From an uncultured bacterium (lineage in GTDB: Bacteria; Chloroflexota; UBA5177; JANWHV01): a stretch of DNA of 64,000 nucleotides. Shown here piece by piece: positions 6,523 to 62,772 of this stretch. The stretch lies in contig CAWHAE010000010.1 of the NCBI GenBank assembly GCA_963827235.1, positions 1 through 64,000 of the forward strand, written 5' to 3'. The number at the start of each line of letters is the position of its first letter. Position 1 is the first letter of the stretch. Under the pieces are notes generated by a model. It was not told where the DNA came from. It did not search any database and saw only the letters and a list, made by a program, of their open reading frames with translations. The translations under genes and the position numbers were made by a program.

Positions 6523-9500
6523 GTGGCAGCCCAGTCTGCTCGGGCAGGAAGCAGCCTGCCCGGATCGGCACCGGCGATGGGGCATGATGGACCGCGAAGT
6601 CCCGAACAGCTGAGTTTCGGCGCGCTGCTGAAGCAGTACCGTGTGGCGGCCGGGCTCTCCCAGGAGGCGCTGGCGGAGCGGGCCCGGCTCTCACCGGGGG
6701 CGATCAGTGCCTATGAGCGCGGCCTGCGCCAGGCGCCCTATCGGGATACCGTGGCGCTCCTGGTTGCCGCGCTGGGACTCTCGGAGCGGGAAGCTGCAGC
6801 GCTGGAGGCCACCGTCTCTCGCCGCCGGGGACCGCCGGACGCGCTTCCCGATGGCCATGCGCCGCTCGACGGCTTCGAGCACCAGGCGAGGGGCACGTTT
6901 GCCGTCGCCCTGCCTGGCCAGCCCTTCGTCTACGTCTCCTATGCCCGCGCCGATCGTGCCCTGGTCACGCGGCTGGTGGACGAGCTGCACGGGCTGGGCG
7001 TGGTGACCTGGAACGACGACCTGGGACTGCAGCCGGGCACGCCGGACTGGGAGCAGACGCTGCGCGACGCCATCCGCGCCGCGCGCGCCGTCTTGCTGGT
7101 CGCCTCGCCGAGCTCGCGCGCCTCGCGCTACGTCGCCGACGAGCTGCGGGTCGCCGAGATGTACCGGCGCCCCGTGTACCCAATCTGGGTGGCGGGCGAG
7201 CAGTGGATGGAGTGCGTCGCCCTCGGCTGGGGCGGCATGCAGTACGTGGACGCCCGCGGCAGCCGCTATGGCACCGCGCTGCAGGATATCGCCGTGGCAC
7301 TCCAGCGCGCCGGCGAATCGGTGACCGCGGAGCACGCCGGCGGCGACGTCTCACCGGACGCGGCGCCCCGCAACCCGTACAAGGGCCTGCGGGCCTTTCA
7401 GCGTGCGGACGCCGGCGACTTCTTCGGGCGGGAGAGCTTGGTGGCCGAGCTGCTGGCGGGCCTGTCGGCCGGTATCCGGGCCGAGCGACGGCTGCTGGCG
7501 GTGGTGGGGCCGAGCGGATCCGGGAAGTCCAGCGTGGTGCTCGCCGGCCTGCTGCCCCGACTGCAGCGGGGCGCCGTGCCGGGCAGCGAGCAGTGGACGT
7601 ACCTGGAGCCGCTGGTGCCGGGGACACATCCGCTGGAAGCGCTGACCGTGGCGCTGGGCGCAGTGCTGCCCGGCAGCAGTCTGGCGACCCTGCGCGCTGA
7701 TCTGGAGGACTCGGAGCGGGGCCTGCATCTGCTGGCCGCTCGCCTGATGCCGGGGCCGGGTAGCCGCGTCGTACTGGTGGTCGATCAATTCGAGGAGCTG
7801 TTCACGCTGACGGCGGACGAGGCGGAGCGGCGTGCCTTCATCGACCTGCTCGTCACCGCCGCCACCGAGCCGCGGGGAGCGCTGCTGGTCCTGCTGACGC
7901 TGCGTGCCGACTTCTACGACCGGCCGCTGCACTATCCGGCCCTGGGCAATCTGCTCGACGCGCAGCACACGGTCGTGCTGCCCATGGCACAGCACGAGCT
8001 GCGGGAGGCCATCGAGCAGCCCGCGCTGCTGCCCGACGTCGGGCTCACGTTCGAGGAGAACCTGGTCGGCGATCTGCTCTTCGAGGTGCGCGGGCAGGCC
8101 GGCGCCCTGCCGCTGCTCCAATTCACCCTGGACCAGCTCTTCGCGCGCCGGAGCGGGTGCACGCTGACGCTGGCGGCGTACCAGGAGCTTGGTGGGGTGC
8201 GAGGAGCCCTGGCGCGGCACGCCGAGGCCACCTATGCCGCGCTGCCGGCGCCGGAGCACCGGCGGCTGGCACGCGGCCTCTTTCTGCGCCTGATCGACCC
8301 CGGCCCGACGGAGCAAGAGACGACGCGGCGGCGGGCGGCGCTGGACGAGCTGCGCCTGCCCGACCCCGAGCGGACGGCGCTGCTGGCCCAGGTGAGCGAA
8401 GCGTTTATCCAGGCGCGCCTGCTGACCAGCGGCGAGAGCGGCGACACGAGCATGATCGAGGTGAGCCACGAGGCGCTGATCCGGGAGTGGCCCCGGTTGG
8501 CGGAGTGGCTGCACGAGGCCCGGGAGGATATCCGGCTGCAGCAGGGCATCAGCGCGGCGGCGGCGGAGTGGGAGCGGCGGGGGCGACCGGCGGACAGCCT
8601 GTACCGGGCGACGTTGCTGTCCGAGGCGACCGGCTGGGCGCAGCGGAACGTGCCGAGCAGGCGGGAAATGGCGTTCCTGGAGGCGGGCGCGGCGGAAGAG
8701 CAGCGGCAGGAGGCCGCGGACCGCGAGCGGCAGGCGCGGGAGGTGGCCACGGCGCAGCAGGCGGCGGCAGCCAGCCGGCGGCGGCGCTGCGCCTCCGAGC
8801 CCTGGTCGGCCTGCTGGCGATCTTCCTGGTGATGGCTGCCGGGCTGAGCCTGGCGGCGCTCCGCAGCGCGTCCACTGCCCGCACGGAGCGGACACACGCC
8901 GTTGCCGCCGAGGCCACGGCGGTCGCCGAGCGCGACACGGCGCTCTCCCGCCAGCTGGCGGCGCAAGCCATCACCCACCTGACGGATCAGTATGACCTGG
9001 CGCTGCTGCTCAGTCTGGAGGCACGGCGCACGGCCGACACCGTCGAAGCGCGCGGCGGCCTGCTCCAGACACTGGAGGCGCGTCCGGCAGCACTGACGTC
9101 GTTCCTGCCAACCCGGGGCATGGCATCGTGGGCGCTTGCAGTGAGCCCTGACGGCAGGACGCTGGCCTGGGCCACCTCAATGCCCGGGAGCGCCATCTAC
9201 CTTTGGGACGTGCTACACCAGCGTGAGCTTGACCCACCGCTGATCAGCCACCTCCACGGCCTGTATAACCTCTCGTTCGGCGCCGGCGGCAAGACGATAG
9301 CAGCTAACAGCGGCGATGGGCGGAGCGTGGAGGTGTGGGACATCGCGCGGCGGCGACCGGCCGGTCCGGTCTTCTCACTGTCCGCCGTCGAGCCCTCCCC
9401 CGGCCCCACACACGTGGATTTCGCCGCCGTAAGCCCCGACGGCAAGACCGCGGCATTCGCCTATGGCAACGCGGTGTATCTGTGGGACATGCCGCGGAAG

Positions 9501-11039
9501 AAGCTCGCGGCCACGCTCGCAACCTCACGGGAGGTGTACACGATGGCTATTGCGCCCGACGGCAAGACCCTGGCCGCGGGCGAGTATGGCGGCCCTGTCG
9601 AGCTGTGGAATCTTGAGGGCTCCCCACGCCGCAGAACCCTCGCGGGCCATGTGAGCGTCGTGGACGGCCTGGCTTTCAGCGCCGACGGCAAGATCCTTGC
9701 CTCGGGTAGCAACGACATGACGGTCCGGCTCTGGGATGTCCAGAGCGGAAACGAGATCGGCGCCGCGCTGGCCGGTCATACCCGCGCCGTGAACGCCCTG
9801 GCCTTCAGCCGGGATGGCACGCTGCTGGCATCGGGGGACATGGGTGGCAGCATCGAGCTGTGGGATATGACGGGCCGGCGCCTGCTCGCGACGCCGCTGG
9901 ACAGCCACACCGGCGCTCCCAACTTCCTGGCGTTCGGCGCCAAGGACACCGCCCTGTTCGCCGCGGACGGCAACGGCACGATAGCGGCATGGGACGTGGC
10001 CACCGCGCTCGCGGGTCCGGCCTTGCTCGCCGACTCCGACCAAGCCACTGTCGCATCCCTGACCTTTAGCCCCGACGGGCGATCGCTGGTGTCCGGCGAC
10101 TGGAATGGCAACGCGCAGATCTGGAACACCGCGACGTGGGAGTCCGGCACGTGGCACGACGCGTACCTGCTGTGGGGATCGGCGTGTGCGTTTTCCCGCG
10201 ACGGCAGAACGCTGATCACAGCGGGCGACGTGGTGGGCGAAGGGTTCATCACGGTGTACGACGCTCGACGAGGCACCCAGGTCAAGGTGCTGCGCACGAC
10301 GCTGACGGCCACCGCGGACACCGTGATGCGGATGGCTCTCAGCCCGGACGCCTCCATCGCGGCAGTAGGCTACCACGCCGGCACCCAGGTGGAGTTGTGG
10401 GATCTGCGGCTCGGCAAGCTGCTGCGGCCGGTGATCGAGAACCGGCAAGGTGAGCTGCGGGATCTTGCCTTCAGTCCGGACGGCAAGACGCTGGCATCGG
10501 TCTGGTCGGACGGGACGGTCAGGCTGTGGGATGTCGTGCACCGACGCCCGTACGGCAGGCCGCTGACCGGACACATCGGCGCCGTGAATAGCGTCGCCTT
10601 CAGCCCGGACGGGAGGCTGCTGGCCACGGGGGGCGACGACTACACGGTGCGGCTGTGGAAGGTGTCCTGCGCCTGCGCGGACGGAGCCCCGGTGCAGCTG
10701 ACGAGTTTTGTCAGCGCGGTGGCCTTCAGCCCCGATGGCACGCTTCTGGCGACAGGAGGCGGTGAGACCACCGTGCAGCTGTGGGATGTCGCGACGCGCC
10801 AGCCCTTAGGCCCTCCCTTGCGCGGGCTATCGCAGCCGGTGATTGCCGCGGCTTTCAGTGCAAACGGCAAGCTGCTCGCCGCCGGCGACTACAACGGGAA
10901 CATACACGAGTGGGACGTGGACCTCGCATCCTGGCCGGCACGCGCGTGCGAGGTCGCCGACCGCAATCTCACGGCCCAGGAATGGGCGCAGTACCTTGGC
11001 GACCGGCCCTACCACAAGACCTGCCCCGGCGCTCCCTGA
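6523..11039 (+). CDS. XRE-HTH / TIR / nSTAND1 NTPase / TM / WD40 protein, single frameshift near 8775
   Basis: FGALLKQYRVAAGLSQEALAERA (XRE); FVYVSYARAD...SRYVADEL (TIR); RNPYKGLRAF...[51 protein letters not shown] (nSTAND1); TM LVGLLAIFLVMAAGLSLAAL; about 14 WD40 repeats; RNLTAQEWAQYL...TCP tail. Confidence 0.92.
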
Positions 11040-37439: not shown

Positions 37440-38129
37440 ATGCTAAGCACGAGGAAGCTGGTCGCGTTGCTGGTGGTCATGCTCGCCGTCCTCACCCTGG
37501 GACCGGCGCCTGCCGCCCAGGCGAGCAGCACACAGATTCAGGTATTCCCGCCGCAGTCGCACCCCTACGGCCACTCATACAGCGAATGGCTCATCCGGAT
37601 CGTCCGGTGGGGGTGGAGTTTGCCTCTGGCGGAGGCCCCCTTCAACGACAGCACCGGTGCGTTCTGCGCCGTGGGCCAGTCCGGCCCGGTCTGGTACCTC
37701 GAAAACAACACCGGAGGCACCGATATCCGCACCTGCACGGTGCCCGCCGGCAAGGCGCTCCTCATCATGGCAGCTGGGCTGATGGCTATGACCGTGTCGG
37801 GGAATGGCGACACCTTCGAGGCACTGAGCCGCGCCGCCGGGGGCTGGGAGGACAGTCTGACACAAGCTGACGTGACCGTAGATGGTGTGCACCTCACGAA
37901 CCTGCTCACGCGCTACCGGTTCCAGACCCCGCTCTTCACGCTATGGTATAACGCTAGTAACTGGATGGGCATACCTGGGCCCGGGACCACCAAGGCGGTG
38001 GCTGATTGCAACTGCGTCATGCTGGCTCCGCTGGCAGCAGGACGGCACACGCTCGACCTGCGCTTTTCGTACAATTCTCCTGTGTCGGAGCATGGCGAAG
38101 TCATCTACCATCTGACGATTCGCCGCTGA
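37440..38129 (+). CDS. secreted paralogue D
   Basis: 3' two-thirds nearly identical to C. Confidence 0.9.
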   Translation: MLSTRKLVALLVVMLAVLTLGPAPAAQASSTQIQVFPPQSHPYGHSYSEWLIRIVRWGWSLPLAEAPFNDSTGAFCAVGQSGPVWYLENNTGGTDIRTCTVPAGKALLIMAAGLMAMTVSGNGDTFEALSRAAGGWEDSLTQADVTVDGVHLTNLLTRYRFQTPLFTLWYNASNWMGIPGPGTTKAVADCNCVMLAPLAAGRHTLDLRFSYNSPVSEHGEVIYHLTIRR

Positions 38130-44009: not shown

Positions 44010-44037
44010 GACACTTCCGATCACAGCCTGAGAACGA

Positions 44038-44634: not shown

Positions 44635-45924
44635 TCAGGCGACCAGCAGCCAGGAGTCAGCGTGGGTGCCAGCGCTGCCGTGAGCTGCGAGGATATGCCT
44701 GCCAGGGGCAGGTCGGATGTTGTGCGCGCTGACAGGGCTGTGCTGGTGGTCGTACAACTCCAGGCTCCACGTGCCATCCGAAAGCGCGGTGACGTAGCCG
44801 TGATAGCGGCTGTCCCAGAACAGGGCGACCGTCTCATTCGGCTGGAATCCGGTACCGGACACGGCGAGCTCTTCGCCGTTGGCCAGGACGGCTCGGTGTG
44901 GCTGCGGCGCGCCGTCACGCAGCACGGTCGCGGTGATGGTCGGGTACGCCGCGAGTGCCGCGTGCATCGCAGGGGCAGCCGTGATGCGCAGGGCGTCGGC
45001 CGTGATGATGGCACTGGTATTGGCTTCCAGATACGGCCAGGAGATCTCCGCATAGCCGTTCAGGCCCCAGCTTGTGCCCCAGGAGTTCTCGACCCAAGCG
45101 CCGGCGTTGTCGTAGCCCATCACAACCAGCTCGTGGCCGCCCAGGGAGGCGGCTGGATCCGCCGGCACCGGCGCAATCCACGCGCTCGTGGCGGTCGCAT
45201 TGTAGAGATTGGGATATACGGTGAGGCCGATAAGCGCCGGATGGCCGGCGGCCAGCGCGGTCTCGATGACGGTACGCACCCTGCTGGGGTTTGTGTCCCA
45301 GTCGCGCGGGTCGCCGATTTGGGCGGCGCGACCGGGGAAATACGTGATGCCGGCGAGGGCATAATGCCGGGCCAGGGCGCGCTGAGCAGCGGTAGGCCGG
45401 CTGCGCCAGGCGTAGTTGCCTTGCTGGTAATCGGCCAGGGGCAGCATGCCCTGCTGCGCAGCCGCGAGGACCTGTGACTCCCAGCTTCCTGCATCCTGGT
45501 GGCCGTCGACCTGGCCATAGGTGAAGAGCGGTGCGAAGTAGCCGGTGGGGAGGTGCTGCTTGTCGACGTACCAGCCGGCGAGCGTGTAGACGGCAGCCCA
45601 GGCCACGCAGTCGCTCACCCAGCCCTGGTCGCCCACGGGTGGCGCGTTGCGGCTGAGATCGACGCTGGTCGGGAATATGGTTGTCTGGCCGAGCAGGGTG
45701 AGGGGTGGCAGCGGCCCGTAGTCGGTGCTTCGTGTGCCCGGCAGGAGGTGCAGACCTCTCCGTGGCGCTATCGGCGCGGACCAAGCGGGCCCCGCGGCGC
45801 GTGCTACGAGGCCGCCTGCGCTCAACAAGGCGCTTCCCAGGGGGAGCAGAGCGAGAAGACCCGCTCCTACCAGCAGCAGGGAGTTCGATCCTAACGGACC
45901 GCGGCGTGCGCGATGCGCGTTCAT
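44635..45924 (-). CDS. secreted papain-like (C1) cysteine peptidase; output gene of cassette 3
   Basis: signal/TM segment, PTSVDLS..PPVGDQGWVSDCVAWA (Q, C), GGHELVVMGYD (H), ENSWGTSWGLNGY (N); small C-terminal Ig-like domain. Confidence 0.9.
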   Translation of the reverse strand: MNAHRARRGPLGSNSLLLVGAGLLALLPLGSALLSAGGLVARAAGPAWSAPIAPRRGLHLLPGTRSTDYGPLPPLTLLGQTTIFPTSVDLSRNAPPVGDQGWVSDCVAWAAVYTLAGWYVDKQHLPTGYFAPLFTYGQVDGHQDAGSWESQVLAAAQQGMLPLADYQQGNYAWRSRPTAAQRALARHYALAGITYFPGRAAQIGDPRDWDTNPSRVRTVIETALAAGHPALIGLTVYPNLYNATATSAWIAPVPADPAASLGGHELVVMGYDNAGAWVENSWGTSWGLNGYAEISWPYLEANTSAIITADALRITAAPAMHAALAAYPTITATVLRDGAPQPHRAVLANGEELAVSGTGFQPNETVALFWDSRYHGYVTALSDGTWSLELYDHQHSPVSAHNIRPAPGRHILAAHGSAGTHADSWLLVA

Positions 45925-46413: not shown

Positions 46414-49400
46414 ATGGCCCAAGCGCCGTTGTTCGGCGAGCTGCTGCGACGCGCCCGCGTGGCGGCCGGCCTGACCCAGGAGGCACTGGCCGAACGGGCA
46501 GGGCTGAGCGCCACGGCGATCAGCGCTCTCGAACGGGGCGTCCGCCAAACACCGCAGGGCGAGACGCTGCGCCTGCTGACCAACGCGCTCGCCCTTCCCG
46601 ATAGTGAGCAAGCGCGGCTGGCGGCAGCGGCGCGCCGGCTCGACGCCCGCAGCGGAACGATCCCGGCAGCGAGTTCTCTGGCTGCCACTGGGGCGGTCGA
46701 GCCGCACGCCGGATGCGGCGTCGCGGGTGCCCCTCTGTCCGAAGCGGAGGCCCCGGTCGTCTACCTCGCACACGCGCGTGCCGATCGCGCGCTGGTAGCC
46801 CGCCTCGGCGCCGAGCTGCTTGCGCACGGCATCCGCCCGTGGCGCGGTGCGCAGGAACTCCAGCCTGGCAGCCCAGGGTGGGAGCAAGACGCACGTGATG
46901 CCATCCGCGCTGCCAGAGCAATCCTCTATCTCGGCTCGCCTGAGGCTCGAGCCTCCCGCTACGTGGCGGACGAGCTGCGCGTCGCCGAACTCTACCGGCG
47001 GCCGATCTACCCGCTGTGGCTGGCGGGCGAGGCGTGGCTGGAGTGCGTGCCCCTGGGCTGGGGCGGCATGCAGTACCTGGACGCGCGCGGCGGACGCTCT
47101 GCCGCCGCGCTCGACGAGGTCGCGGCGCTGCTGCGCGGTGACCAGGCGCCGGCGGCACCGTCCGGGGCGTTACCAAACGACGAGGCGCAGGGCACGCCCC
47201 GCAACCCCTACAAGGGGCTGCGCGCCTTTGATGCCGCGGATGCCGGCGACTTCTTCGGTCGCGAGTCGGCGGTCGGCAGCCTGCTCGCGGCGCTGGCCGG
47301 CGAGAATGAGCAGGCGCCGCGCTTTCTGGCCGTCGTGGGGCCGAGCGGGTCGGGCAAGTCCAGCCTGGTCCTGGCCGGCCTACTGCCCCGGCTGCGGCGC
47401 GGCGCGCTGCCGGGCAGTGCCGGATGGATTGACTTGCCGCCGGTCGTGCCAGGCGCGCATCCGCTCGAAGCGCTGAGCGTGGCGCTGGCTGCTTCCCTCC
47501 CTGCCTCGCCCGTTCAGGCTGTGCACGCCGATCTGGAGGCATCGGCGCGCGGGCTGCATCTGCTCGGCCAGCGGCTGGCACCCGAGAGCGGCAGGCGTGT
47601 CGTGCTCGTGGCCGATCAGTTCGAGGAACTGTTCACGCTGGCGGTCGACGAGGCGGAGCGGCAGCACTGCATCGACCTCCTGGTCACGGCGGCGACCGAG
47701 TCCAGGGGACCGGTCCTTGTCATACTCACCCTGCGCGCCGACTTCTTCGACCGGCCGCTGGCCTATCCTGAATTGGCGGCGTTGTTCGACGGGCAGAGCA
47801 AGGCGGTGCTGCCCATGACGTCGGCCGACCTCCGTGCCGCCATCGAAGGCCCGGCTGCCTTGACCGACGTGCAGCTCACCTTTGAAGGAGATCTCGTGGG
47901 CGATCTGCTCTTCGAGGTGCGCGGCCAGGCGGGCGCGCTGCCGCTGCTCGAGTTCACCCTGGAGCAATTGGTGCTGCGCCGCGACGGGCACCGCCTGACA
48001 CTCGCCGCCTACCAGGCGCTGGGCGGGGTGCGCGGCGCCCTGGCCCGGCACGCAGAGGCGGTGTTCGCGGGCCTGCCAAGCGAGGAGCAGCGGCATCTGT
48101 GCCGCGCCCTGTTCTTGCGCTTGATTACGCCCGGAGCCAGTGAACAGGAGACGATGAGGCGGCGAGCCGGGGTGCAGGAGCTGGTGCTGGAGGATGCCGA
48201 GCAGACCCGCCTGCTGCAAGCGACCGCCGAGGCCTTCATCGCGGCCCGCCTGCTGAGCACGTCCGACGGCAGCGGCGGTGCCACGATCGAGGTCAGCCAC
48301 GAGGCATTGCTGCGGGAGTGGGAGCGGCTTGGCGCCTGGCTGCAGCAGGCGTGGGGGGACATCAGACTGCAGCAGTCCGTCAGCGCCGACGCGGCGGAGT
48401 GGGAGCGACAGGGCTGGGATCCCGATTACCTCTATCGCGGCGCGCTGCTGCTGGAGGCGCGCGGCTGGGCGGCGCGGAATCTGCCGAGCGTTAGCGAGGC
48501 GGCGTTCGTGGCGGCGGGCGTGGCGGCGGAGGCGCAGCGGGCCGCGGCGGAACGGGAGCGCCAGGCGCACGAGCTGGCCCTCGAACGGCGCGCCGCTTCC
48601 CGGCTACGGGTACTGACGGGGGCCTTACTGGCCTTCCTCGCGGTAGCAGCCGGGCTGGCGACCGTGGCGATCAACGCGGCCAACACCGCACGGACGAGCG
48701 AGCGTCAGGAAGCCGCCGCCAAAGCCACGGCGCTCGCCCGGCGAGATCTGGCATTGTCGACCACCCTCGCGTTGCAGTCCGTGAGTCATCTGGACGATCA
48801 GACGACGCTCGCGCTGCTGTTGAGCGTGCAAGCCAATCGCCTGGCGAGCACAGTAGAAGCCCGGGGCGCGCTGCTGCAGAGCTTCCAGCACCAGCACAGC
48901 CGGTTGGTCGCAGTGCTGCGGGGCGATCCCGTGGGTGCAGCGGGCGTCAGCTTCAGTCCCGATGGCCGGCGCCTGAGCGCGGTCGGCGTTGGCGGGACCG
49001 TCCGGCAGTGGGACGTGGCAACCCTGCGGCAGCAGAGCCTCTCGGTCACGGTCCCCGGCGTTACGAGCACGCTCGCCGCCGTAACCATCAGCGCCGACGG
49101 CACTCTGATGGCATGCAGTAGCGCCGGGGCGCCGGTCGTCTGGGACCTGCTGCACGGGCACCGCATCGGCGACTTCAGCACCGGCAGCCCAGCCGGTGCC
49201 GTGACGGCGCTCGCTTTCAACGCCGACGGTACCGTCCTCGTCGCGGCCTACACGCCAAATGTGATCAGGCTGTGGGATGTCGCCCATCAGCGCCTGATCG
49301 GTAGTTTCGTTGCGAGCCAGCAAGGCGCCATTGACAGCATGGCGTTCAGCCCAGACGGCAGAACCCTGGCCGTGGGCAGCGATGACGGCTCGCTGTGGCT

Positions 49401-50850
49401 GTGGGACGCGCCACGGCGCCGGGCGATCGCCGGGCTGCTCGAAAACGCCGCGCTGGCTGCCGTGTCTTCTGTGACGTTCAGCCCCGACGGCTCGATCCTG
49501 GCGTCGAACGCGAACGGACGGGTGCAGCTCTGGGACGTGGCACACCGGCGGCCGTTCGGCCAATCGCTCGCGCAAGGGCCGCAGGCCGTCTACAGCGTGG
49601 CTTTCAGCCATGATGGCGCCATCCTGGCGTCGGCCAGCACCGACGGCAGTGTCCAGCTCTGGAGCATGCCGCGCGGGCAGCCCCTCGGCGCACCGCTCAC
49701 GGGCTCCGCGGCCGGCATGGCGGCCGGTCTCGGCTACGGCAATGGCCTGGCCGACCTGGCGTTCAGTCCGGATGACGGCCTGCTTGCCTCGGGCGGCCAG
49801 TCGGACGCGGTGAGACTGTGGGATGTCTCCGCCGCCCATACCCTGGGTCTTCCCCTGCCCGGAAGCGCCAATCCCGCCGCCGGCGTCGCCATGAGCCCGG
49901 ACGGCTCGCTGGCAGCCTCCGCAGGAGCAAACAAGACGATTCTCGTGTGGGACCTGGCCGGACGCCGGCTGCGCTGCAGCCCGCTGGCCGGCCACACCGA
50001 CTACGTCAACAGCCTGGCCTTCAGCCCGGACGGCAGGATTCTGGCGTCCGGCGCTGACGACGCGACAATCAGGCTCTGGGACGTGGCCCACTGCCGGCCG
50101 CTGGGCGCACCGCTCGCCGATCCGGCAGGGGCCGCCGTCGAGAGCCTGGCGTTTGGCGGCGATGGCCGGGTACTGGTCGCGGGCAACGCAGACGCGAGCG
50201 TCCGCTTGTGGGATGTGTCTCGGCGGCAGGTGATCGGTCTGCCGCTCGTCGGGCCCGCCATGCGGGCCTGGAGCGTGGCCGTCAGCCGCGACGGCAGGAT
50301 GGTGGCCAGCGGGAACCTGGACGGCAGCGTGTGGCTGTGGCACCTGTGGAGCGGCGACCGCCCGGGACTGCTGCTGTCGGGGCACACGGGCGCCGTCTAC
50401 AGCGTGGCCTGCAGTCCCGACGGCCGCACGCTCGCCACAGGCGGCGCCGATGGGACGATCCGCCTGTGGGACACGGCGACGGCGCGCGCAATCGGCGCAC
50501 CGCTGGTCGCCAACGCCGTGGTGCGCAGCGTCGCGTTCAGCCCAGACGGCGCCACACTGGCCTCGGCCGGCGACGACGAGTCCATCCGCCTGTGGGATGT
50601 GGCGACCCAGCTGGCGGTGGGGCCGTCGCTCACCGGCCACACGGGCGGTGTGTGGGGCGTGGCCTTTGGGCCAGGTGGCAAGACGCTGGTGTCGGTGGGC
50701 ACGGACCAGACGCTCAGGACCTGGACCATCGATCCGGCGGTGCTGGAACGGCGTGTCTGCCAGATAGCAGGGCGCAACCTGACTCCCGGCGAGTGGCAGC
50801 ACTACCTGGGAGGCCTGCCGTATCAGAAGACTTGCGCGGCCTACCCATAA
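46414..50850 (+). CDS. XRE-HTH / TIR / nSTAND1 / TM / WD40 protein, intact
   Basis: same motif order as the 6523 protein; TM VLTGALLAFLAVAAGLATVAI; about 15 WD40 repeats; extended -10 TGgTAGAGT at about 46321. Confidence 0.95.
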   Translation: MAQAPLFGELLRRARVAAGLTQEALAERAGLSATAISALERGVRQTPQGETLRLLTNALALPDSEQARLAAAARRLDARSGTIPAASSLAATGAVEPHAGCGVAGAPLSEAEAPVVYLAHARADRALVARLGAELLAHGIRPWRGAQELQPGSPGWEQDARDAIRAARAILYLGSPEARASRYVADELRVAELYRRPIYPLWLAGEAWLECVPLGWGGMQYLDARGGRSAAALDEVAALLRGDQAPAAPSGALPNDEAQGTPRNPYKGLRAFDAADAGDFFGRESAVGSLLAALAGENEQAPRFLAVVGPSGSGKSSLVLAGLLPRLRRGALPGSAGWIDLPPVVPGAHPLEALSVALAASLPASPVQAVHADLEASARGLHLLGQRLAPESGRRVVLVADQFEELFTLAVDEAERQHCIDLLVTAATESRGPVLVILTLRADFFDRPLAYPELAALFDGQSKAVLPMTSADLRAAIEGPAALTDVQLTFEGDLVGDLLFEVRGQAGALPLLEFTLEQLVLRRDGHRLTLAAYQALGGVRGALARHAEAVFAGLPSEEQRHLCRALFLRLITPGASEQETMRRRAGVQELVLEDAEQTRLLQATAEAFIAARLLSTSDGSGGATIEVSHEALLREWERLGAWLQQAWGDIRLQQSVSADAAEWERQGWDPDYLYRGALLLEARGWAARNLPSVSEAAFVAAGVAAEAQRAAAERERQAHELALERRAASRLRVLTGALLAFLAVAAGLATVAINAANTARTSERQEAAAKATALARRDLALSTTLALQSVSHLDDQTTLALLLSVQANRLASTVEARGALLQSFQHQHSRLVAVLRGDPVGAAGVSFSPDGRRLSAVGVGGTVRQWDVATLRQQSLSVTVPGVTSTLAAVTISADGTLMACSSAGAPVVWDLLHGHRIGDFSTGSPAGAVTALAFNADGTVLVAAYTPNVIRLWDVAHQRLIGSFVASQQGAIDSMAFSPDGRTLAVGSDDGSLWLWDAPRRRAIAGLLENAALAAVSSVTFSPDGSILASNANGRVQLWDVAHRRPFGQSLAQGPQAVYSVAFSHDGAILASASTDGSVQLWSMPRGQPLGAPLTGSAAGMAAGLGYGNGLADLAFSPDDGLLASGGQSDAVRLWDVSAAHTLGLPLPGSANPAAGVAMSPDGSLAASAGANKTILVWDLAGRRLRCSPLAGHTDYVNSLAFSPDGRILASGADDATIRLWDVAHCRPLGAPLADPAGAAVESLAFGGDGRVLVAGNADASVRLWDVSRRQVIGLPLVGPAMRAWSVAVSRDGRMVASGNLDGSVWLWHLWSGDRPGLLLSGHTGAVYSVACSPDGRTLATGGADGTIRLWDTATARAIGAPLVANAVVRSVAFSPDGATLASAGDDESIRLWDVATQLAVGPSLTGHTGGVWGVAFGPGGKTLVSVGTDQTLRTWTIDPAVLERRVCQIAGRNLTPGEWQHYLGGLPYQKTCAAYP

Positions 50851-50884
50851 CTCGCGACGCACGATGGGCAGAGGAGGACGAGAG

Positions 50885-52129
50885 ATGAGACGAAGCCTGC
50901 TCGGAGTTGTGGCAATGGTGCTGGCTGCCGCGCCGTCCGCGGGCGGCGCGGGCGCGGTATCTCAGCGTGCCGGCGCGACCATCACCGTGTGGGAAGACCT
51001 GAACTCCATTCCGGCGGTGGATGGGCTTACCGCGCTGGCGGACAGGTGGGGCGCCGCCAACGGACTGAGCGTGAAGTTCGTCACCTTCGGCCAGCCCGGG
51101 GGTACCAACTGCATTCCCTGTCAGTTCCCGCCCAAGGCGAAGAGCAAAGACGGCCCGGACATCATCTATTTTCCGGAGGACGAGCAGGGCGGCTACGCGG
51201 TAGCCAAGCTGATCGCGCCACGGCCGGCCGGCGTGCTCAGTGCGTCCGACCTGGCAAGGTACCAGCCGTTTGCGCAGGCCGCGACCTTGGTCGACGGCGT
51301 GCCGTACTCGATTCCACACGACGAAGACGGCCTGCTGCTGTTCTACAACAAGCGGCTGGTGCACGATCCTCCCGCCACCTGGACACAGCTGATCGCCAGC
51401 GCCAGCAGGCTGACGAAAGGCAACCAGTCCGGCTTTCTCTACTGGATCTCGGGTGGTCTCTACTACAACTACTGGGCGTACGGCGGCTACGGCGCCTACG
51501 TCTTCGGGAGCAAAGGCGGGAAGGTCGACATCAGAGACATCGGGCTCGACAATGCCGCCGCCGTGCAGGCTCTCACCTTCATCCGATCGCTCACCGCGAT
51601 CGTGCCGAAGAGCGTCGACTATTCATTTGTCAGCCAAGCGTTCCAGGCCGGCCGGGCGGCGATGATCCTGGACGGCCCGTGGAATCTCGACTCCTATGCC
51701 GGGTCATTGGGGCCGGACCTGGGCGCCGCCGACATCCCGGCCCTGCCGGGCGGCTACGTGAGCAGGCCGTTCGTCGGCATTCGCGTCTGGGCGGTCAACC
51801 GCTACAGCGCGCACCAGGCTGCCGCCTGGGATCTGGCACGGTACCTGAGCCTGAACGGCCAGGCGATCACCGCCAGGTACGAGGATCGCCTGCCGACGCT
51901 CCGAGTCGCGCCCGGCTTTACGCCGAACGCGCTGCAACTGGCCGCCGAGCGGCAGTTCAGCGCAGGCATCCTGATGCCGAACTCGCCGGCCATGTCCCAG
52001 GTCTGGGACCCAGAGTACAACGCTATCAACCTCGTGCTGCAGGGGAAAGCGTCGCCACGGCAGGCCCTCAAGACGGCTGTTCAGAAGATCAAGAAGTCGT
52101 ACGCGACGTGCCGGTGTCTCGGCCGTTGA
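50885..52129 (+). CDS. MalE-like sugar ABC substrate-binding protein, orphan
   Basis: signal peptide, ITVWE, GPDIIY, DGVPYSIP, LLFYNKRLV..PPATW, FQAGRAAMILDGPW, MPNSPAMSQVW; no permease or ATPase adjacent. Confidence 0.9.
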   Translation: MRRSLLGVVAMVLAAAPSAGGAGAVSQRAGATITVWEDLNSIPAVDGLTALADRWGAANGLSVKFVTFGQPGGTNCIPCQFPPKAKSKDGPDIIYFPEDEQGGYAVAKLIAPRPAGVLSASDLARYQPFAQAATLVDGVPYSIPHDEDGLLLFYNKRLVHDPPATWTQLIASASRLTKGNQSGFLYWISGGLYYNYWAYGGYGAYVFGSKGGKVDIRDIGLDNAAAVQALTFIRSLTAIVPKSVDYSFVSQAFQAGRAAMILDGPWNLDSYAGSLGPDLGAADIPALPGGYVSRPFVGIRVWAVNRYSAHQAAAWDLARYLSLNGQAITARYEDRLPTLRVAPGFTPNALQLAAERQFSAGILMPNSPAMSQVWDPEYNAINLVLQGKASPRQALKTAVQKIKKSYATCRCLGR

Positions 52130-52431: not shown

Positions 52432-53709
52432 TCACGCCGCGGACACGCGCGTAAACACGCAGACAACGCCTCTGGCGCGGTCCTTGAAGCCGGCACCAAC
52501 CAGGACCGCGCCGCCGCTTTCGGCCACAGAGCCGCCAAACCAGTCGCCGGAGCCGCCGTCACCCGCGGTAAGCCTGGCCTGCTGGGCCCAGCGGCCGGCT
52601 GCGCGGGTGAAGACGTACACGGCGCCTGCCTGGTCGTCGGCGTACCACGCTCCGACCAGCGCGGTATTACCGCTCAGGGCCACCGCGTGACCGAACCGGT
52701 CGCGGCAGGCGCCGTCTGCGGCCCTCAGCCTAGCCTGCTGCGTCCACTCCTGCTCAGTGCGCACGAAGATGTAGGCTGCTCCTCGCTGGCAGTCGGCGTC
52801 TCCCGCGCCGACCAGCGCAGTGCTATCGGTAAGCGCGACGGCCATGCCGAAAACATCGCCCGGCATGCCATCGCTCGCGCTGAGCCGAGCCTGCTGCTTC
52901 CAGGTGACGCCTTGCCGCGTGAAAATGAAAGCACTTCCGGTGTTGGCAACCACCCCGGCGGCGCCGACCAGTGCCATGTCGGCGTGCAAGGCGACGGAGG
53001 TGCCGAAGTAGTCCTCCGGCTCGCCCTTGTCCGCGGTGAGCATGGCCTGCTGACTCCAGCGGCCGGCAGTCCGCGTGAAGACGTAGGCTGCACCGGCGTG
53101 GTCATGTGCGTACCAGGCGCCCACCAGCGCGCTGTCCCCATACAGCGCCACGGCACGGCCGAACCAGTCACCGGGAGCACCGTCGCGGGACGATAGCCTG
53201 GCCTGCTCCGTCCACTGCCGTCCGTGCCGCACGAAGATGTACGCTTCCCCGGTGTGGCCGGCCATCGGTGCACCGATCAAGGCAGTATCGCCGCTGAGCG
53301 CCACCGAAACGCCGAACCAGTGATCGGGATTGCCGCTATCGGCCGCAAGCGTGGCCTGTTGAGTCCAGCCACTCGTCGTGCGCACGAAGACGTAGGCGGC
53401 GCCCGCGCCGTGGTGGGCGTTCCAGGCGCCGACCACGGCCGTGTCCCCGCTCAGGGCGACCGGCCCGCCGAAGTGGTCGCCGGCCTGCCCGTCGCCGGCG
53501 GAGAGCTGTGTCTCCTCCTGCCAGCGGGACGAAGTGCCGGCCGACCCGCCACTCCGTAGCTGGGGTCGGCCGGCCTGCAGCGTGGTGAGACGGGGTCGTG
53601 CACCCTGATGGCCGGGTGCTGCCGAACCGGCGAGACAGCGCGGCGGGGCCACGCTGACGGCGAGCAGGGCGGACAGCAGGAGAGTGCAGAGCGTGCGGCG
53701 CGGGGTCAT
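52432..53709 (-). CDS. secreted FG-GAP repeat beta-propeller; output gene of cassette 4
   Basis: GAAAGGAGCA RBS, signal peptide, seven repeats D.FG..VALSGDTALVGA...GAAYVF.R....W.QQA.L. Confidence 0.9.
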   Translation of the reverse strand: MTPRRTLCTLLLSALLAVSVAPPRCLAGSAAPGHQGARPRLTTLQAGRPQLRSGGSAGTSSRWQEETQLSAGDGQAGDHFGGPVALSGDTAVVGAWNAHHGAGAAYVFVRTTSGWTQQATLAADSGNPDHWFGVSVALSGDTALIGAPMAGHTGEAYIFVRHGRQWTEQARLSSRDGAPGDWFGRAVALYGDSALVGAWYAHDHAGAAYVFTRTAGRWSQQAMLTADKGEPEDYFGTSVALHADMALVGAAGVVANTGSAFIFTRQGVTWKQQARLSASDGMPGDVFGMAVALTDSTALVGAGDADCQRGAAYIFVRTEQEWTQQARLRAADGACRDRFGHAVALSGNTALVGAWYADDQAGAVYVFTRAAGRWAQQARLTAGDGGSGDWFGGSVAESGGAVLVGAGFKDRARGVVCVFTRVSAA

Positions 53710-58788: not shown

Positions 58789-59373
58789 TCAGTACTGCAC
58801 GAGGACTTCCTCGGCATGGACGCCGGCGGTGCTGGGGCCGAGGTCCAGCATGTCGTCACGGTAGTACCCCGGCCAGGCCGGAATTGGCCACATCTCCGGA
58901 TACGCCATGCCCCCCGCTACCATCGGGTTGTGTACGTCGCGCACCACCCTCGAGCCATCGAACGTCACCCACTCGTCGGAAACATAGAAGTTCCACGCAC
59001 AAGGGCTAAAGTAGCCCTTGCCATGTGCCGCCAGGTGGCAGAGACCCGTGAAAGCCGTGCTCCCCCACAGCTTGGCGTCGCATTGCGGGCTGACGTCACT
59101 GCCGCTGCCTGCGAGCGTCGCCTCATACGAGAATGTGGCGCTGCCCGCGGCAGTACTCACGATATCCACCGTGACGGCCAGCGTGACGGCGCCCGGCGCA
59201 TGGTCGGCCAGGGCGCAGACTTCACCGGGACCGTGGCCGGGCTCGCAGCTCCAAAACAGCTGAGCCAGCCAGTGACCGGCCAGCGACGGGGTACCGGCCG
59301 CCGCCGCGGTGTGTACCGGTAGGCAGGCCAGCACCAACAAGAGGCTTGCGAACAGCTGATGTGTGACGCGCAT
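58789..59373 (-). CDS. secreted Cys-containing hypothetical protein; output gene of cassette 5
   Basis: GAAAGGAGCA RBS, signal peptide MRVTHQLFASLLLVLACLPVHTAAAA, five Cys in the mature part. Confidence 0.78.
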   Translation of the reverse strand: MRVTHQLFASLLLVLACLPVHTAAAAGTPSLAGHWLAQLFWSCEPGHGPGEVCALADHAPGAVTLAVTVDIVSTAAGSATFSYEATLAGSGSDVSPQCDAKLWGSTAFTGLCHLAAHGKGYFSPCAWNFYVSDEWVTFDGSRVVRDVHNPMVAGGMAYPEMWPIPAWPGYYRDDMLDLGPSTAGVHAEEVLVQY

Positions 59374-59741: not shown

Positions 59742-62700
59742 GTGGAGACCACCCAATCCTTCGGTGAGCAGCTGCGGGAGGGGCGGCTGGCGGCAGGGCT
59801 GACGCAGGAAGCCCTGGCCGAGCGGGCCGGGGTGAGTGCGCGCGGCATCCAGGCCCTGGAAGGGAGCGAGAGCAAGCCGCAACGGGAGACGGCCAGGCGG
59901 CTGGCTGCGGCGTTGGGCCTGCCCGCGTCTGCGCACCCGGCGTTTCTGGCCGCCGCGGGACCGGCACCGCGTCGCCGGACGGTCGCTGCGCCCGAGGCGC
60001 CCGCCGCGCCTCTGCCACCCACGGTCGGGCCACCCGACCTCGGCAGCCGGCCACCCCTGGTCGGGCGCCAGCGGGAGGTGGCGGCGCTGGAGGCGCACTT
60101 GGCCGGCAAGGGACCGCCCCTGCTGCTGTTCGCCGGCGAGCCGGGTATCGGCAAGACTCGCCTGCTGCAGGAGGCAGCACCCCGGGCCATCCCGCGGGGC
60201 TGGGCGGTGCTGGCAGGCGGGTGCAGCCGTGGCACGGGCGAGCCCTTTGCGCCGCTGCTGCAGGCCCTGGAGCGGCATGTGGCGAGCCGGGCGGTGGCGG
60301 CCTTGCGCGCGGAGCTGGCGGGCTGCGCCTGGCTGGTCCGCCTGCTCCCCGACCTGCCTGCCGATGCCATCGAGCCGCTGCCGCACTGGGTGCTGCAGCC
60401 CGAGCAGGAGCGACACCTGCTGTTCAAGTCGGTCAGCCGCTTCCTGACCAACCTGGCGGGAGCGGCCGGAACGCTGCTGCTGCTGGACGACCTGCAGTGG
60501 GCGGGCGCCGATGCCTGCGACCTGCTCGCCAGTCTGCTCCGCCAGCCGCAAGATGTGCCGTTGCGCTTGGTGGGCGCCTACCGAGATACGGACGTCGGGC
60601 CCGCGCACCCGCTCGTGCTAGCCCTGGCCGAGCTGGGCGAAGCGCAACTGGCAACCGAGCACACGCTGGGTCCCCTGGCGCCAGCCGAGGCCCAGGCGCT
60701 CTTCCTGCAGGCCCTGGGCGAGCCTGGACAGGACAGCGAGGCTCTGGCGGCGCAGGTTGCGTCGCGCGCCGCCGGCGTCCCCTTCTACCTGGTGAGCTAT
60801 GCGCGGAGCGTGCAGAGCCGGCAGACCGAGGGGCCGACTGCACCGGGCGTGCCCTGGGACCTGCGGCAGAGCATCCGGCGCCGGGTGCAGGCCCTGCCGG
60901 AGGCCACACGGACGCTGCTGGGCACGGCGGCGGTGCTGGGCCGTGTGGTGCCCCGCACGCGGCTGCTCGCGGTGATGGGACTGCCCGAGGGTGAAGTCCT
61001 CGATGCCGTGCAGCACGCCTGCCGCGCCGGGCTGCTGGAGGAGACGGCGGACGACGCCTATGCCTTCGTGCACGACCTGATCCGCGAGGTGGTGGAAGCG
61101 GACCTGGCGCTGGGGCGCCGCCGCCTGCTGCACCAGCAGGTGGCCGAAGCCCTGGAACGCGCACCCGGCAAGCCGCCCGTGGAGGCGCTGGCCTACCACT
61201 TCCGGGAGGCGGGCGATGCGGCGCGGGCGGCGATCTACCTGGAGCAGGCCGGCGATCAGGCGGCGGCCCGGTTCGCTGACACGGCGGCGGCGGAGCGCTA
61301 CCGGCATCTGGTGGCGTGCCTCGAGGGACTGGGCGGCGCCGAGGCCGACCTCCTGCGCGCCCGTGAGAAGCTGGGCATTGTCCTGGCATGGCGCTTGGGG
61401 CAGTTCGGCGCCGCGCTGGCGGTGCTGGACCAGGCCGCGAGCATGCTCCGCCTGGCGGGCGACCAGGCAGGCATGGCCAGAGTGGAAACGCTCATCGCTG
61501 GGATCTACGGAGACAGAGGTCCCTTTCCGGCGGGGATAGCGCGCCTGCAGCCGATCGTGGCCACACTGGAGTCCCGCGGCCCCTCCGGCGAGCTGGCCAA
61601 GGTGTACTTGAGGCTGGCCAACCTCCACGCGTCGAATGGGCAGCCGGACTACGCGTTGGACTATGGCAGCCGCGGGGAGAAGATCGCCCGTGCGCTGAGC
61701 GACCAGGCTCTGCTGCTCTGGGCACTCACGAACCACGCCTACGTCTGCATCATGGCGAGCCGCGCCGATGAAGCGCTCCGGGCGGCCCAGGAGGCCGCAG
61801 CTTTGGCGGGACCGGAGGACGATGAGCCATGGGGCATACTGGCCTGGACCCTCGAGGAGCGCGGCGAGACCCGAGGACTCATGGGGGCCCTACGGGGGCC
61901 CTACCACCAACTGGCCTGGATCCATGAGGAGCGGGGCGAGTACGAGCAGGGCAGGCAGGCCGCCGAGCACATGCTCGCGATCGCGGAGGGGGCACGGGAT
62001 CCGGCCGGCATCATCACCGCCATGAGCCGGCTGGGGCTAGACGCTTTCCTGAGCGGTGATTGGGTCGCCGGCCGTGCCTACCTGGAGCGCGGCCTGGCCC
62101 TCGCGGACGAGATGGGCTTCAGGGACGGATTTAACTACACTGGCCCGCGCGTCGACCTGGGGCGACTCCTGCATGCCGCGGGCGCCTGGGACGAGGCGGC
62201 GCAGTACTTCGAAGCGGTGCTGGCAGTCTCAGGAGGAACGGGCGAGCGTTTGCACGCGCTCATCGCTCGTGCCCTCCTGGCCGAGCGCGAGGCGGTCGCC
62301 GGCCATCCCGAGGCGGCCTGTGCGCGCCTACTCCCGCTCCGCGACCAGCCGGGTCAGGAGGAGCGTATCGTGACGCAGTACGTGCTGCCCGTGCTGGCCT
62401 GGGCGCAGCTCGAAGCGGGCCAGATCGATCAGGCTGCCGGTACGGTGCGCGAGGCACTTGAGCGGGCGCGGCGCGGCACCTGCCGGCTGGCATGGGCAGA
62501 GGACCTGCGGGTGCAGGCCCTTGTGCTGTTGGCGCAGGGGTGCTGGGACGAGGCAGAGCAGGCGCTGGCGGAGGGTCTGGCCCTGACGCGGAGCATGCCC
62601 TACCCGCACGGCGAGGGACGGCTGCTGGCGGTCTACGGCCGCCTGCACCTGGCCCGCGGCGACGCTGCGGCCGCGCCGAGCCTGCCTGGAGGACGCGCTG

Positions 62701-62772
62701 ACTATCTTCCGGCGGCTGGGGGCGCGCGCGGATATTGAGAGTGCCGAGCAGCTGCTGGCCACGCTCGGCTGA
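59742..62772 (+). CDS. XRE-HTH / AAA_16-type STAND ATPase / TPR regulator, frameshift near 62680
   Basis: paralogue of the 18487 protein; the true tail LEDALTIFRRLGARADIESAEQLLATLG ends at TGA 62770-62772 and matches LEAALVIFHRLGAVKDEVRVQQLLVTLG. Confidence 0.92.

Follow-up and report, generated by a model that had tools for sequence, protein, structure and literature searches.

Predicted conflict systems built on nSTAND1 NTPases (PF20703) are described, in the portion of Kaur et al. 2021 (PMC8195603) available to us, as joining a full-length nSTAND1 domain to an N-terminal effector, such as TIR, and a C-terminal repeat sensor, with variable modules at both ends and expansions in filamentous or multicellular bacteria. 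These features are shared by three paralogous proteins, copies A, B and C, of the 64,000-nucleotide stretch of DNA here analysed (the window). That portion describes no membrane span for such systems and calls related sensors intracellular, whereas in the copies and in most close relatives a predicted span splits the NTPase from the sensor and, in this subfamily, an XRE-type HTH is added before the TIR domain. A STAND NTPase with a membrane span is also shared by the sensors of Pepco-protease modules, which a 2025 preprint (bioRxiv 10.1101/2025.11.14.688446) mentions in passing as 'transmembrane STAND ATPases', and by sea cucumber transmembrane NLRs (PMC13133943). The former are set apart by that brief mention, where no HTH plus TIR or WD40 ectodomain is described, and the latter are animal NACHT-Ig proteins for which the available text describes neither.

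Apaf-1 and WD40-type STAND proteins resemble the copies in that the NTPase is followed by two tandem WD40 propellers, but Apaf-1-type proteins and the bacterial 2ymu are soluble and cytosolic and lack the helix between NTPase and propeller, the Cys-pair tail and the HTH. Moreover, Apaf-1, Avs and bNACHT stay within one compartment, whereas the copies are predicted to be divided by a 21-residue span. Toll-like receptors also place a repeat sensor across the membrane from a cytoplasmic TIR by a single span, exactly the layout of the relative P0264 (TIR-TM-WD40-tail); unlike them, the copies would be N-in/C-out and not type I, carry WD40 instead of LRR, hold an NTPase between TIR and span and add an HTH, and no evidence for common descent was found beyond the TIR fold. 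An N-in/C-out single-pass layout with cytoplasmic N-terminal output and extracytoplasmic C-terminal sensor is that of PknD/PknB, ToxR/CadC and RodZ, PknD having a beta-propeller outside, and RodZ (XRE-type), ToxR and CadC a membrane-tethered HTH. None of them is known to carry a TIR domain or a STAND NTPase, their likeness to the copies being one of layout.

The three copies comprise the following features:

46414..50850, + strand: copy B, intact HTH-TIR-nSTAND1-TM-WD40-tail gene, 1478 aa from the ATG at 46414
46432..46620, + strand: copy B XRE-type HTH (HTH_3/HTH_31), residues 10-72; HTH_31 49.6 bits, HTH_3 48.6 bits
46759..47115, + strand: copy B TIR_2, residues 119-237
47206..48423, + strand: copy B nSTAND1 NTPase, residues 268-673
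48490..48786, + strand: copy B unbroken stalk helix, residues 696-794 (AlphaFold2 model residues 7-105)
48610..48672, + strand: copy B predicted transmembrane segment (TM), residues 736-756, 21 uncharged residues
48907..50730, + strand: copy B WD40 array, 14 blades (blade-end count and AlphaFold2 model)
50758..50835, + strand: copy B two-helix C-terminal tail with the conserved Cys pair C1452...C1477
54136..58575, + strand: copy C, intact paralogue, 1479 aa (database form P0035)
54175-54336, 54472-54831 and 54916-56145, + strand: copy C HTH, TIR and nSTAND1
56353-56415 and 58483-58560, + strand: copy C TM and tail Cys pair
6523-11039, + strand: copy A, whole, frameshifted just upstream of the helix
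6523..8832, + strand: copy A first frame, with HTH, TIR, nSTAND1 and coiled coil
6616-6804, 6928-7275 and 7375-8592, + strand: copy A HTH, TIR and nSTAND1
8787..11039, + strand: copy A second frame, with basic run, TM, WD40 and tail
8799-8861 and 10947-11024, + strand: copy A TM and tail Cys pair, with 14 WD40 blades

A GTG at 46405 is a possible alternative start for copy B, yielding 1481 aa, and its database entry (P0007) is the 1478-aa form. Copy A lies in two frames: the first stops at 8832, and a second one encodes the helix, WD40 and tail. The frame shifts at about 8772-8785, where a (CGG)n run lies between coiled coil and helix; this break may reflect a true pseudogene or an assembly error.

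The tripartite STAND/NLR order is present, with an HTH plus TIR effector end, an nSTAND1 NTPase and a 14-blade WD40 sensor. A sequence-only reading had proposed these domains in a single chain, and Pfam matches above cut-off bear it out for all of them, copy A being frameshifted. The nSTAND1 (PF20703) scores are 371.8, 380.6 and 404.0 bits in B, C and A against a cut-off of 27.1, each match spanning model positions 1-378 of 379; those for TIR_2 (PF13676) are 58.5, 50.4 and 67.4 bits against 28, and each copy scores 43-56 bits for the XRE-type HTH (HTH_3 / HTH_31), the cut-off being 23-27. Walker A reads GPSGSGKSS in every copy (47338-47364 in B), and Walker B reads VLVADQFEELF in B (47602-47634) with equivalents in the others, so that both motifs (GxxGxGKS[ST] and hhhhDQxEE) are intact. 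The Glu of S-x-x-V-x-D-E-L, which may be equivalent to the catalytic Glu of TIR NADases, is kept in the three copies (S-R-Y-V-A-D-E-L in B) and in 167 of 219 family TIRs; a PDB sequence search returned no solved TIR for alignment.

That reading had also noticed a coiled coil with a basic end before a single hydrophobic helix, 14-15 WD40 repeats and a conserved two-Cys tail, all of which were recovered: a basic-ended stalk with 21 uncharged residues, 14 x-W-D blade ends and a C-x24-C motif occur in each copy. WD40 stretches found by Pfam number 10 above threshold in B, 13 in C and 6 in A. The copy B stalk consists, in order, of a charged coiled-coil part, the basic run RRAASRLR (residues 728-735, 48586-48609), the hydrophobic run that starts directly after it (VLTGALLAFLAVAAGLATVAI, residues 736-756) and an outer helix. 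This hydrophobic run has a 19-residue Kyte-Doolittle (KD) mean of 2.26, being the sole segment of at least 1.6 in the protein, and the hydrophobic segments of copies C (KD 2.76) and A (KD 2.52) are likewise the only ones in their proteins.

In an AlphaFold2 model of copy B from stalk to tail (mean pLDDT 84.5), the hydrophobic segment lies within a single unbroken helix; pLDDT is low (52-53) at model residues 31-50, which cover the stalk immediately ahead of the span and the first residues of the span. The stalk is followed by two cap helices (about 48808-48900), about 14 four-stranded blades and the two-helix tail, so that by this model the 14 blades would form two seven-bladed propellers. Foldseek placed a 14-blade bacterial WD40 protein (2ymu, E 2.9e-48, 33% identity) and Apaf-1 (3shf, TMq 0.52) as the solved folds nearest to the modelled ectodomain.

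The helix was then considered across the family, where it lies about 425 aa past Walker A (median 426, range 396-447). It is present in 116 of 118 evaluable closest homologues, in 103 of 118 evaluable 50%-identity cluster representatives (8 borderline, 7 without) and in 56 of 67 evaluable loci (5 borderline, 6 without) from Actinomycetota, Chloroflexota, Cyanobacteria, Acidobacteriota, Proteobacteria and Bacteroidota, these being three separately drawn sets of homologues whose counts are not independent events; it is also found in 9/9 intact paralogues of the Chloroflexota genome. Because this fixed offset recurs in the three samples, the predicted helix is a family trait and not chance, and in this clade it normally follows nSTAND1.

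On these grounds, we consider it likely that the proteins are N-in/C-out and single-pass, the HTH, TIR and NTPase lying in the cytoplasm and the WD40 and tail outside, the latter probably disulfide-stapled. By Kyte-Doolittle windows and flank charges, which are crude topology measures, helix-bearing relatives show 19-32 uncharged residues (KD 1.8-3.3) and more K+R in the 15 residues on the N-terminal than on the C-terminal side: 4.08 v 1.64 in closest homologues (N>C in 104/116), 4.49 v 1.21 in cluster representatives (100/103) and 6.09 v 2.64 in loci (53/56). The sequence-only reading had placed the WD40 outside from the positive-inside rule and the Cys pair, which holds family-wide and less so for the window copies taken by themselves; since their bias is modest (4 versus 2-3 K+R), the case for this topology rests on the family.

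Alternatively, the protein might be wholly cytoplasmic, its helix a peripheral or monotopic anchor or buried core and its WD40 sensing ligands within the cell in the manner of Apaf-1 and Avs, an option that we regard as improbable. Characterised STAND/NLR sensors are all cytosolic, helix-less nSTAND1-WD40 and nSTAND1-FGE relatives are known, Kaur et al. 2021 (PMC8195603) term lectin-like FGS sensors intracellular in the portion available, and Dore et al. 2023, in the part at hand, predict cytoplasmic nSTAND1 DGR targets. Against this, the uncharged stretch with its one-sided Arg-rich flank has the form of a classical span, exceeding in both length and hydrophobicity what a soluble core would hold, and no ATP-dependent module stands behind it. 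PAS, GAF, HisKA or HATPase_c modules follow the NTPase in 8 of 15 helix-less relatives scanned vs 0 of 42 helix-bearing ones (Fisher p 4e-6), and this absence of PAS/GAF/histidine-kinase modules behind the helix supports N-in/C-out; what does follow it is WD40, right-handed beta-helix, Chlam_PMP, NosD, FGE-sulfatase or TSP3. The tail Cys pair also tracks the helix, in further support: the helix is present in 67 of 68 tail-bearing proteins, both Cys being kept in 66 of the 67, while the sole helix-less one (L016), the one case on which the covariation rests, has lost both; Cys counts downstream of the helix showed no bias to even numbers. The same topology is favoured by the occurrence of the TM-linker-WD40-tail cassette behind TIR alone (P0264) or a 40-residue N-terminus (P0259), where the helix is an N-terminal signal anchor. 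Against an outside location count two relatives (P0241, P0224) whose helix is followed by TPR or TPR+CHAT, CHAT being generally regarded as an intracellular protease. Sensors of the WD40 and FGE-sulfatase kinds are found in nSTAND1 relatives that lack the helix too (L016, L018, L059, L063, L054), and the compartment therefore cannot be read from the kind of sensor.

Some NLR and defence systems use membrane-disrupting helices as output, and the helix could thus be a latent effector, shielded at rest and inserting to form a pore or lesion upon NTPase oligomerisation. Its conserved small-residue patch, F-L-x-V-A-A-G-L, could pack helix to helix. Nonetheless, we hold this to be very unlikely, since effector domains in the family are N-terminal and not between NTPase and sensor, the helix occurs without any NTPase in P0259 and P0264, and charge asymmetry and the Cys-pair pattern would be left unexplained.

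Regarding how common the design is, the sequence-only reading counted three paralogues and judged the HTH and TIR tandem unusual. The count holds for the window, but genome-wide there are 10 full-length nSTAND1 genes and 2 broken ones; the rarity did not stand, as HTH+TIR+nSTAND1 is found in 30/119 closest database homologues and 8/10 paralogues of this genome. Thus, the design is real and unstudied, and common rather than unique. The majority of family members have TIR without HTH, and in other relatives the N-terminus is swapped for caspase, trypsin, CHAT, kinase or EAD8 domains, domains of the kind treated as conflict-system effectors in the portion of Kaur et al. 2021 (PMC8195603) at hand.

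By analogy with characterised STAND proteins, the outside propellers would bind a ligand and the stalk helix would pass the signal inward, upon which the NTPase domains would oligomerise in the membrane plane. Clustered TIR domains might then cleave NAD+ or produce a signal nucleotide, leading to growth arrest or death, while oligomerisation would also alter DNA binding by the HTH, which probably regulates either its own receptor gene or the exported-protein gene that lies head-to-head with that gene. We give this full chain, from membrane receptor to TIR clustering, HTH change and surveillance, an even chance of being correct. A surveillance role at the cell surface, towards cues from phage, competitors or non-kin, is consistent with the number and divergence of the paralogues and with their variable sensors. 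For a conflict or immune role the balance is equally level: no PADLOC-DB 2.0 defence model matches the NTPase beyond the P-loop (mad3/mad8, under 30 residues), the other matches being HTH-type (capH, RmrA N-terminus, control protein) or a partial TIR match, so an immune role is something that we infer.

That lack of a defence model would also suit a somewhat unlikely alternative with the same topology, in which an envelope, developmental or kin-signalling receptor acts through HTH transcription, as membrane-bound one-component regulators do, with TIR as oligomerisation scaffold. The retained TIR Glu, the effector swaps and the prevalence of TIR without HTH speak against it. The genes around the copies are the following:

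44635..45924, - strand: copy B head-to-head neighbour, 429 aa, N-terminal signal-like segment, weak Peptidase_C1 match (E 3.3e-4)
50864..52129, + strand: solute-binding protein (SBP_bac_1), signal-like N-terminus, 13 nt past copy B
52432..53709, - strand: copy C head-to-head neighbour, FG-GAP protein, 7 repeats, signal-like N-terminus
58789..59373, - strand: 194-aa signal-bearing protein between copy C and the next gene
59742..62738, + strand: HTH(XRE)-AAA_16-TPR STAND-type regulator, HTH class as in copies A-C

The HTH class of the copies heads 44 genes in the genome, most with STAND-type NTPases and TPR, a look of MalT/AfsR-style regulators that favours the transcriptional alternative, although a shared operator was looked for upstream of these 44 genes and none was found. 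Also in its favour, a signal-like protein is encoded opposite 14 of the 20 HTH-STAND genes that have a head-to-head neighbour, vs 373/1564 other genes, and the secreted 194-aa and 175-aa families lie 0.4-2.7 kb from such HTH genes in 5/5 copies. Pairing with a secreted target, as had been suggested, is weakly supported: there is a head-to-head excess in this genome but no conserved partner, no neighbour family recurring next to relatives across 80 loci of other genomes; the excess points to neighbours being regulated targets rather than ligands. The 194-aa protein matched no Pfam family, and its relatives adjoin two other HTH-STAND genes in the genome. The HTH-AAA_16-TPR regulator shows no hydrophobic span after its NTPase and has a paralogue at 18487-21432, while the SBP_bac_1 pairing recurs only beside the 84% twin of copy B, on contig C1.

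All the elements that the sequence-only reading had proposed for three receptor paralogues of the window were found in copies A, B and C, namely the HTH, TIR and nSTAND1 domains, the basic run, a single hydrophobic helix, 14 blades and the two-Cys tail. The claim of three paralogues thus stands as far as the architecture is concerned, but copy A is a broken frame.

Predicted receptor copies of the window and Pfam domains of copy B
6523-11039, + strand: copy A, in two frames, the first ending at 8832
46405/46414-50850, + strand: open reading frame of copy B, as delimited in the sequence-only reading
Copy B, residues 10-72, + strand: HTH_3/HTH_31
Copy B, residues 119-237, + strand: TIR_2
Copy B, residues 268-673, + strand: full-length nSTAND1 NTPase (371.8 bits versus a cut-off of 27.1)
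54136-58575, + strand: copy C, in its 1479-aa database form (P0035)

Pfam also matched many WD40 repeats in copy B. A longer open reading frame of copy C, starting at 53608, is an upstream extension. Each copy contains exactly one strongly hydrophobic segment, with 19-residue Kyte-Doolittle (KD) means of 2.26 (B), 2.76 (C) and 2.52 (A), and its 21-residue uncharged run immediately follows a basic run whose sequence is RRAASRLR for B, RRAAGRLR for C and, past the shift, LRLR for A. Fourteen x-W-D blade ends were counted in each of the three copies, all of which carry the C-x24-C tail. The GC fraction of the window ranges from 0.60 to 0.73.

In copy A the helix, the WD40 repeats and the tail lie in the second frame, the shift occurring within a (CGG)n run at ~8772-8785, between the coiled coil and the helix. 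Contigs of 4 metagenome runs included one related contig of 489 nt that covers the shift site (8619-9106), differing at 17 places and containing one gap; among the runs listed, none of which is an RNA run, the fraction of sampled words did not exceed 0.18. The frame change marks a pseudogene or an on/off site prone to slippage, or else stems from an assembly error.

An AlphaFold2 model, in itself silent on the membrane, was obtained for residues 690-1481 of copy B with 35 homologues (mean pLDDT 84.5). It displays a single unbroken helix at residues 696-794 that includes the span, with pLDDT values of 52-53 just ahead of and at the span start, and, after this stalk, two cap helices, ~14 four-stranded blades and two short tail helices. 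Foldseek neighbours of the model include the bacterial 14-blade WD40 protein 2ymu (E 2.9e-48) and Apaf-1. Sequence searches of the PDB returned no match for the nSTAND1 region and, for the TIR region, no TIR but only de novo TIM barrels (E 0.007).

Three differently drawn family samples were then used to judge the span and its orientation. The first comprised the 119 database proteins closest to residues 1-830 (8000 candidates scored, 6296 with E<=1e-3). Walker A was present in 118 of them, and 116 of these 118 showed a segment of KD>=1.8, located 396-447 residues past Walker A (median 426) and with an uncharged run of 19-32 residues (median 22). The 15-residue flanks averaged 4.08 K+R on the N side versus 1.64 on the C side, the N side being richer in 104 of the 116 proteins, equal in 11 and poorer in one. 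For the second sample, the NTPase domain alone was searched against 1.84 billion cluster representatives, yielding 42,713 matches at E<=1e-3 and 15,677 at E<=1e-30; among the best 150, 130 were new and 118 evaluable, with the segment present in 103, borderline in 8 (KD 1.5-1.8, mainly Gly-rich spans) and absent in 7, and flanks of 4.49 versus 1.21 K+R. The third consisted of 80 loci from named genomes of Chloroflexota, Actinomycetota, Cyanobacteria, Acidobacteriota, Proteobacteria, Bacteroidota and others, 67 of them evaluable (segment present in 56, borderline in 5, absent in 6; 6.09 versus 2.64 K+R). Members of all samples are homologues of each other and the counts are not independent events; despite this, the predicted membrane helix is clearly an old and retained feature of the family.

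This helix (48610-48672 and relatives) is more conserved than anchoring requires, and a small-residue patch, F-L-x-V-A-A-G-L-S, recurs within it in the WD40 subfamily; the patch could be a helix-helix packing face.

Regarding orientation, the proposal that HTH, TIR and NTPase are cytoplasmic, and WD40 and tail extracytoplasmic (N-in/C-out), is well supported by comparison, through the conserved helix, the N-side K+R and three natural controls, and we consider this topology quite probable. Fifteen helix-less relatives were scanned (P0123, plus sets of eight and six), 8 of which display PAS, GAF, HisKA/HisKA_3 and HATPase_c modules behind the NTPase, the rest showing WD40 (4), FGE-sulfatase (1), a weak TPR match (1) or nothing (1). 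PAS/GAF/HisKA/HATPase_c modules depend on cytoplasmic ATP. None was detected behind the helix in the 42 helix-bearing relatives scanned (Fisher p 4e-6 versus 8/15), these being a set of 11 plus 31 drawn from 39 chosen among the 87 of 130 proteins without a WD40-like look. Domains found behind the helix were WD40, right-handed beta-helix, Chlam_PMP, NosD, FGE-sulfatase and TSP3 repeats, and likewise TPR (P0241) and TPR+CHAT (P0224), while N-terminal effectors (TIR, trypsin, caspase, CHAT, kinase, EAD8, zinc ribbon, HTH) always preceded the NTPase. Among 68 tail-bearing proteins, 67 have the helix, 66 of these retaining both Cys, and the sole helix-less one (locus L016) has lost both; this single case is suggestive of covariation of the Cys pair with the helix.

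A search for shorter tail proteins provided P0259, which consists of a 40-residue basic N-terminus, the helix, a matching post-helix linker, WD40 and the Cys tail, a layout implying that its helix is an N-terminal signal anchor. In P0264 the order is TIR-helix-WD40-tail, a layout that resembles Toll-like receptors and has no NTPase. Since it is found in both proteins, the predicted helix-linker-WD40-tail unit travels as a cassette. Against the N-in/C-out topology, (i) WD40 and FGE sensors exist in helix-less relatives too, (ii) CHAT is present behind a helix, (iii) the charge bias is small in the three window copies taken alone, and (iv) no even-number bias of the Cys counts after the helix was evident.

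The window opens a 1.08-Mb contig of an 8.0-Mb assembly (21 contigs, 95.9% complete, 9% contamination), whose rpoB is 90% identical to that of Chloroflexota MAGs and ~81% to those of Chloroflexia and Thermomicrobiales; its rpoB match (C14:445154-449125, L082) lies in an open frame of just 560 aa, so that the gene is possibly split or frameshifted in the assembly. The genome holds 10 full-length and 2 broken nSTAND1 genes, and in 9/9 intact paralogues the hydrophobic segment lies ~430 residues past Walker A. A combination of HTH and TIR in one chain had been considered unusual, which proved wrong, the pairing being that of a recurrent subfamily: 8 of the 10 genome genes have both, 2 have TIR only, and 6 bear the Cys tail. 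A twin of copy B, 84.5% identical, occurs on a 14-kb contig (C1:5812-11613), followed, as copy B is, by a solute-binding gene (82% identity between the two); because of the estimated contamination, the twin may be a variant belonging to a second strain and not a duplicate.

With regard to outputs, the Glu at the conserved S-x-x-V-x-D-E-L position of the TIR domain, which we take to be the catalytic residue of TIR NADases, is present in A, B and C, and 167 of the 219 TIR domains compared across the family have it. The HTH class occurs 44 times in the genome (tblastn), mostly on STAND-type genes; in the two AAA_16-TPR genes of the window it is 53-61% identical to the receptor HTH.

Neighbouring genes in the window
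17540-18073, - strand: small secreted Cys-containing family, no Pfam match, 2 genome copies
18487-21432: HTH(XRE)-AAA_16-TPR STAND-type gene, HTH class common to the receptors
31355-33088, + strand: large repeat protein, PQQ_2-like
38560-40851, - strand: large repeat protein, DUF346/BNR
43065-44024, - strand: HTH_11-WYL-WCX regulator of PafC-like type, two genes upstream of copy B
44635-45924, - strand: signal-bearing Peptidase_C1-like protein, head-to-head neighbour of copy B, absent from the crude gene map
52432-53709, - strand: large repeat protein, FG-GAP
58789-59373, - strand: small secreted Cys-containing family, no Pfam match, 3 genome copies
59742-62738, + strand: HTH(XRE)-AAA_16-TPR STAND-type gene, HTH class common to the receptors

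On a crude gene map with 4084 genes and a coding density of 0.62, and using a permissive signal-peptide heuristic that passes 27% of genes, a signal-like head-to-head partner was found for 14 of the 20 genes with such a neighbour that pair this HTH with a STAND-type NTPase (HTH-STAND genes), versus 373 of 1564 others (odds ratio 7.5, p 2e-5), figures that paralogous loci inflate. With the same inflation, all 5 copies of both small secreted families lie 0.4-2.7 kb from an HTH-STAND gene, mainly head-to-head. The idea that the receptors are paired with a secreted target has therefore some local basis in this genome, but no neighbour recurs beside relatives elsewhere: 8 neighbour proteins searched against the 80 related loci (tblastn) gave zero matches, and the 194-aa secreted neighbour only one short, probably spurious match in other genomes, in a Bacteroidales MAG. 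The exported proteins look more like regulated neighbours than conserved ligands. Gapped palindromes (5-nt arms, gaps 0-12) in 360 nt around the 44 HTH gene starts revealed no shared operator, the maximum being 3 occurrences versus 2-3 in 30 shuffles.

The window receptors are a variant of the STAND/NLR-like conflict or signalling switches. To our knowledge, all such switches studied to date, whether bacterial, plant, fungal or mammalian, sense their ligands intracellularly, and the window proteins differ from all characterised ones by a sensor predicted to lie across the membrane. Surface sensing is the job of Toll-like receptors and further receptor types. The nSTAND1 clade was named within the STAND class, and its conflict systems predicted, by Kaur et al. 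2021 (PMC8195603), whose abstract describes their lectin-like sensors as intracellular and whose available text mentions no membrane span in nSTAND1 systems; in that of Kaur et al. 2020 (PMC7159879) spans are described for other systems, not nSTAND1. As far as their accessible portions indicate, Dore et al. 2023 (bioRxiv 10.1101/2023.09.22.558884) predict a periplasmic location for some NACHT-lectin DGR targets and a cytoplasmic one for their nSTAND1 targets, a 2025 preprint (10.1101/2025.11.14.688446) includes, in a passing phrase, 'transmembrane STAND ATPases' among the sensors that serve Pepco-protease modules, transmembrane NLRs of a sea cucumber are mentioned in a 2026 paper (PMC13133943), and Hu et al. 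2017 (PMC5587647) do not treat topology of prokaryotic WD40 proteins. Over the available text of the literature on nSTAND1, membrane-spanning STAND/NLR, WD40 and bacterial TIR proteins, an nSTAND1 span is undescribed, although figures or supplements may show it, and PADLOC 2.0 has no model for the nSTAND1 NTPase of the copies.

Taken jointly, these observations allow a tentative reading, which we regard as possible but rather doubtful, in which the nSTAND1 clade is a class of outside-in NLR-like receptors, very large (over 15,000 cluster representatives at E<=1e-30) and spread across phyla. Its members would act as prokaryotic pattern-recognition receptors, reading surface ligands by swappable ectodomains (WD40, beta-helix, C-type-lectin-like FGE), and NTP-driven oligomerisation would relay the signal through the membrane, triggering TIR, protease or kinase outputs in the cytoplasm. 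Receptors of the HTH-TIR subfamily would additionally switch the head-to-head exported-protein gene, a single chain thereby linking surface sensing both to an enzyme of death or arrest and to a secreted response. If the topology is true, a very large, unstudied bacterial family merges intracellular NLR and surface-receptor logics in one chain, and would offer a simple test system for how a ligand on one side of the membrane licenses NTPase oligomerisation on the other; the view of conflict systems of the nSTAND1-FGE and nSTAND1-repeat types, including retroelement-diversified targets, as intracellular sensors would then change. Even on a modest reading there is an annotation gap, ~10 paralogues in one genome being named just 'WD40 repeat protein' or 'TIR domain-containing protein'.

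Other features of the window accompany the receptors. PafC-like HTH_11-WYL-WCX regulators are often tied to defence or DNA-damage loci. Large repeat proteins are abundant in the window, and the FG-GAP one, the only one examined in this respect, has a signal-like N-terminus. A tandem array at 34611-38129 comprises four signal-bearing paralogues of ~240 aa that belong to no Pfam family; among six further genome copies, three have the start of an HTH-STAND gene no more than 2 kb away, and another directly adjoins the paralogue at C12:63429-68048 on its 3' side.
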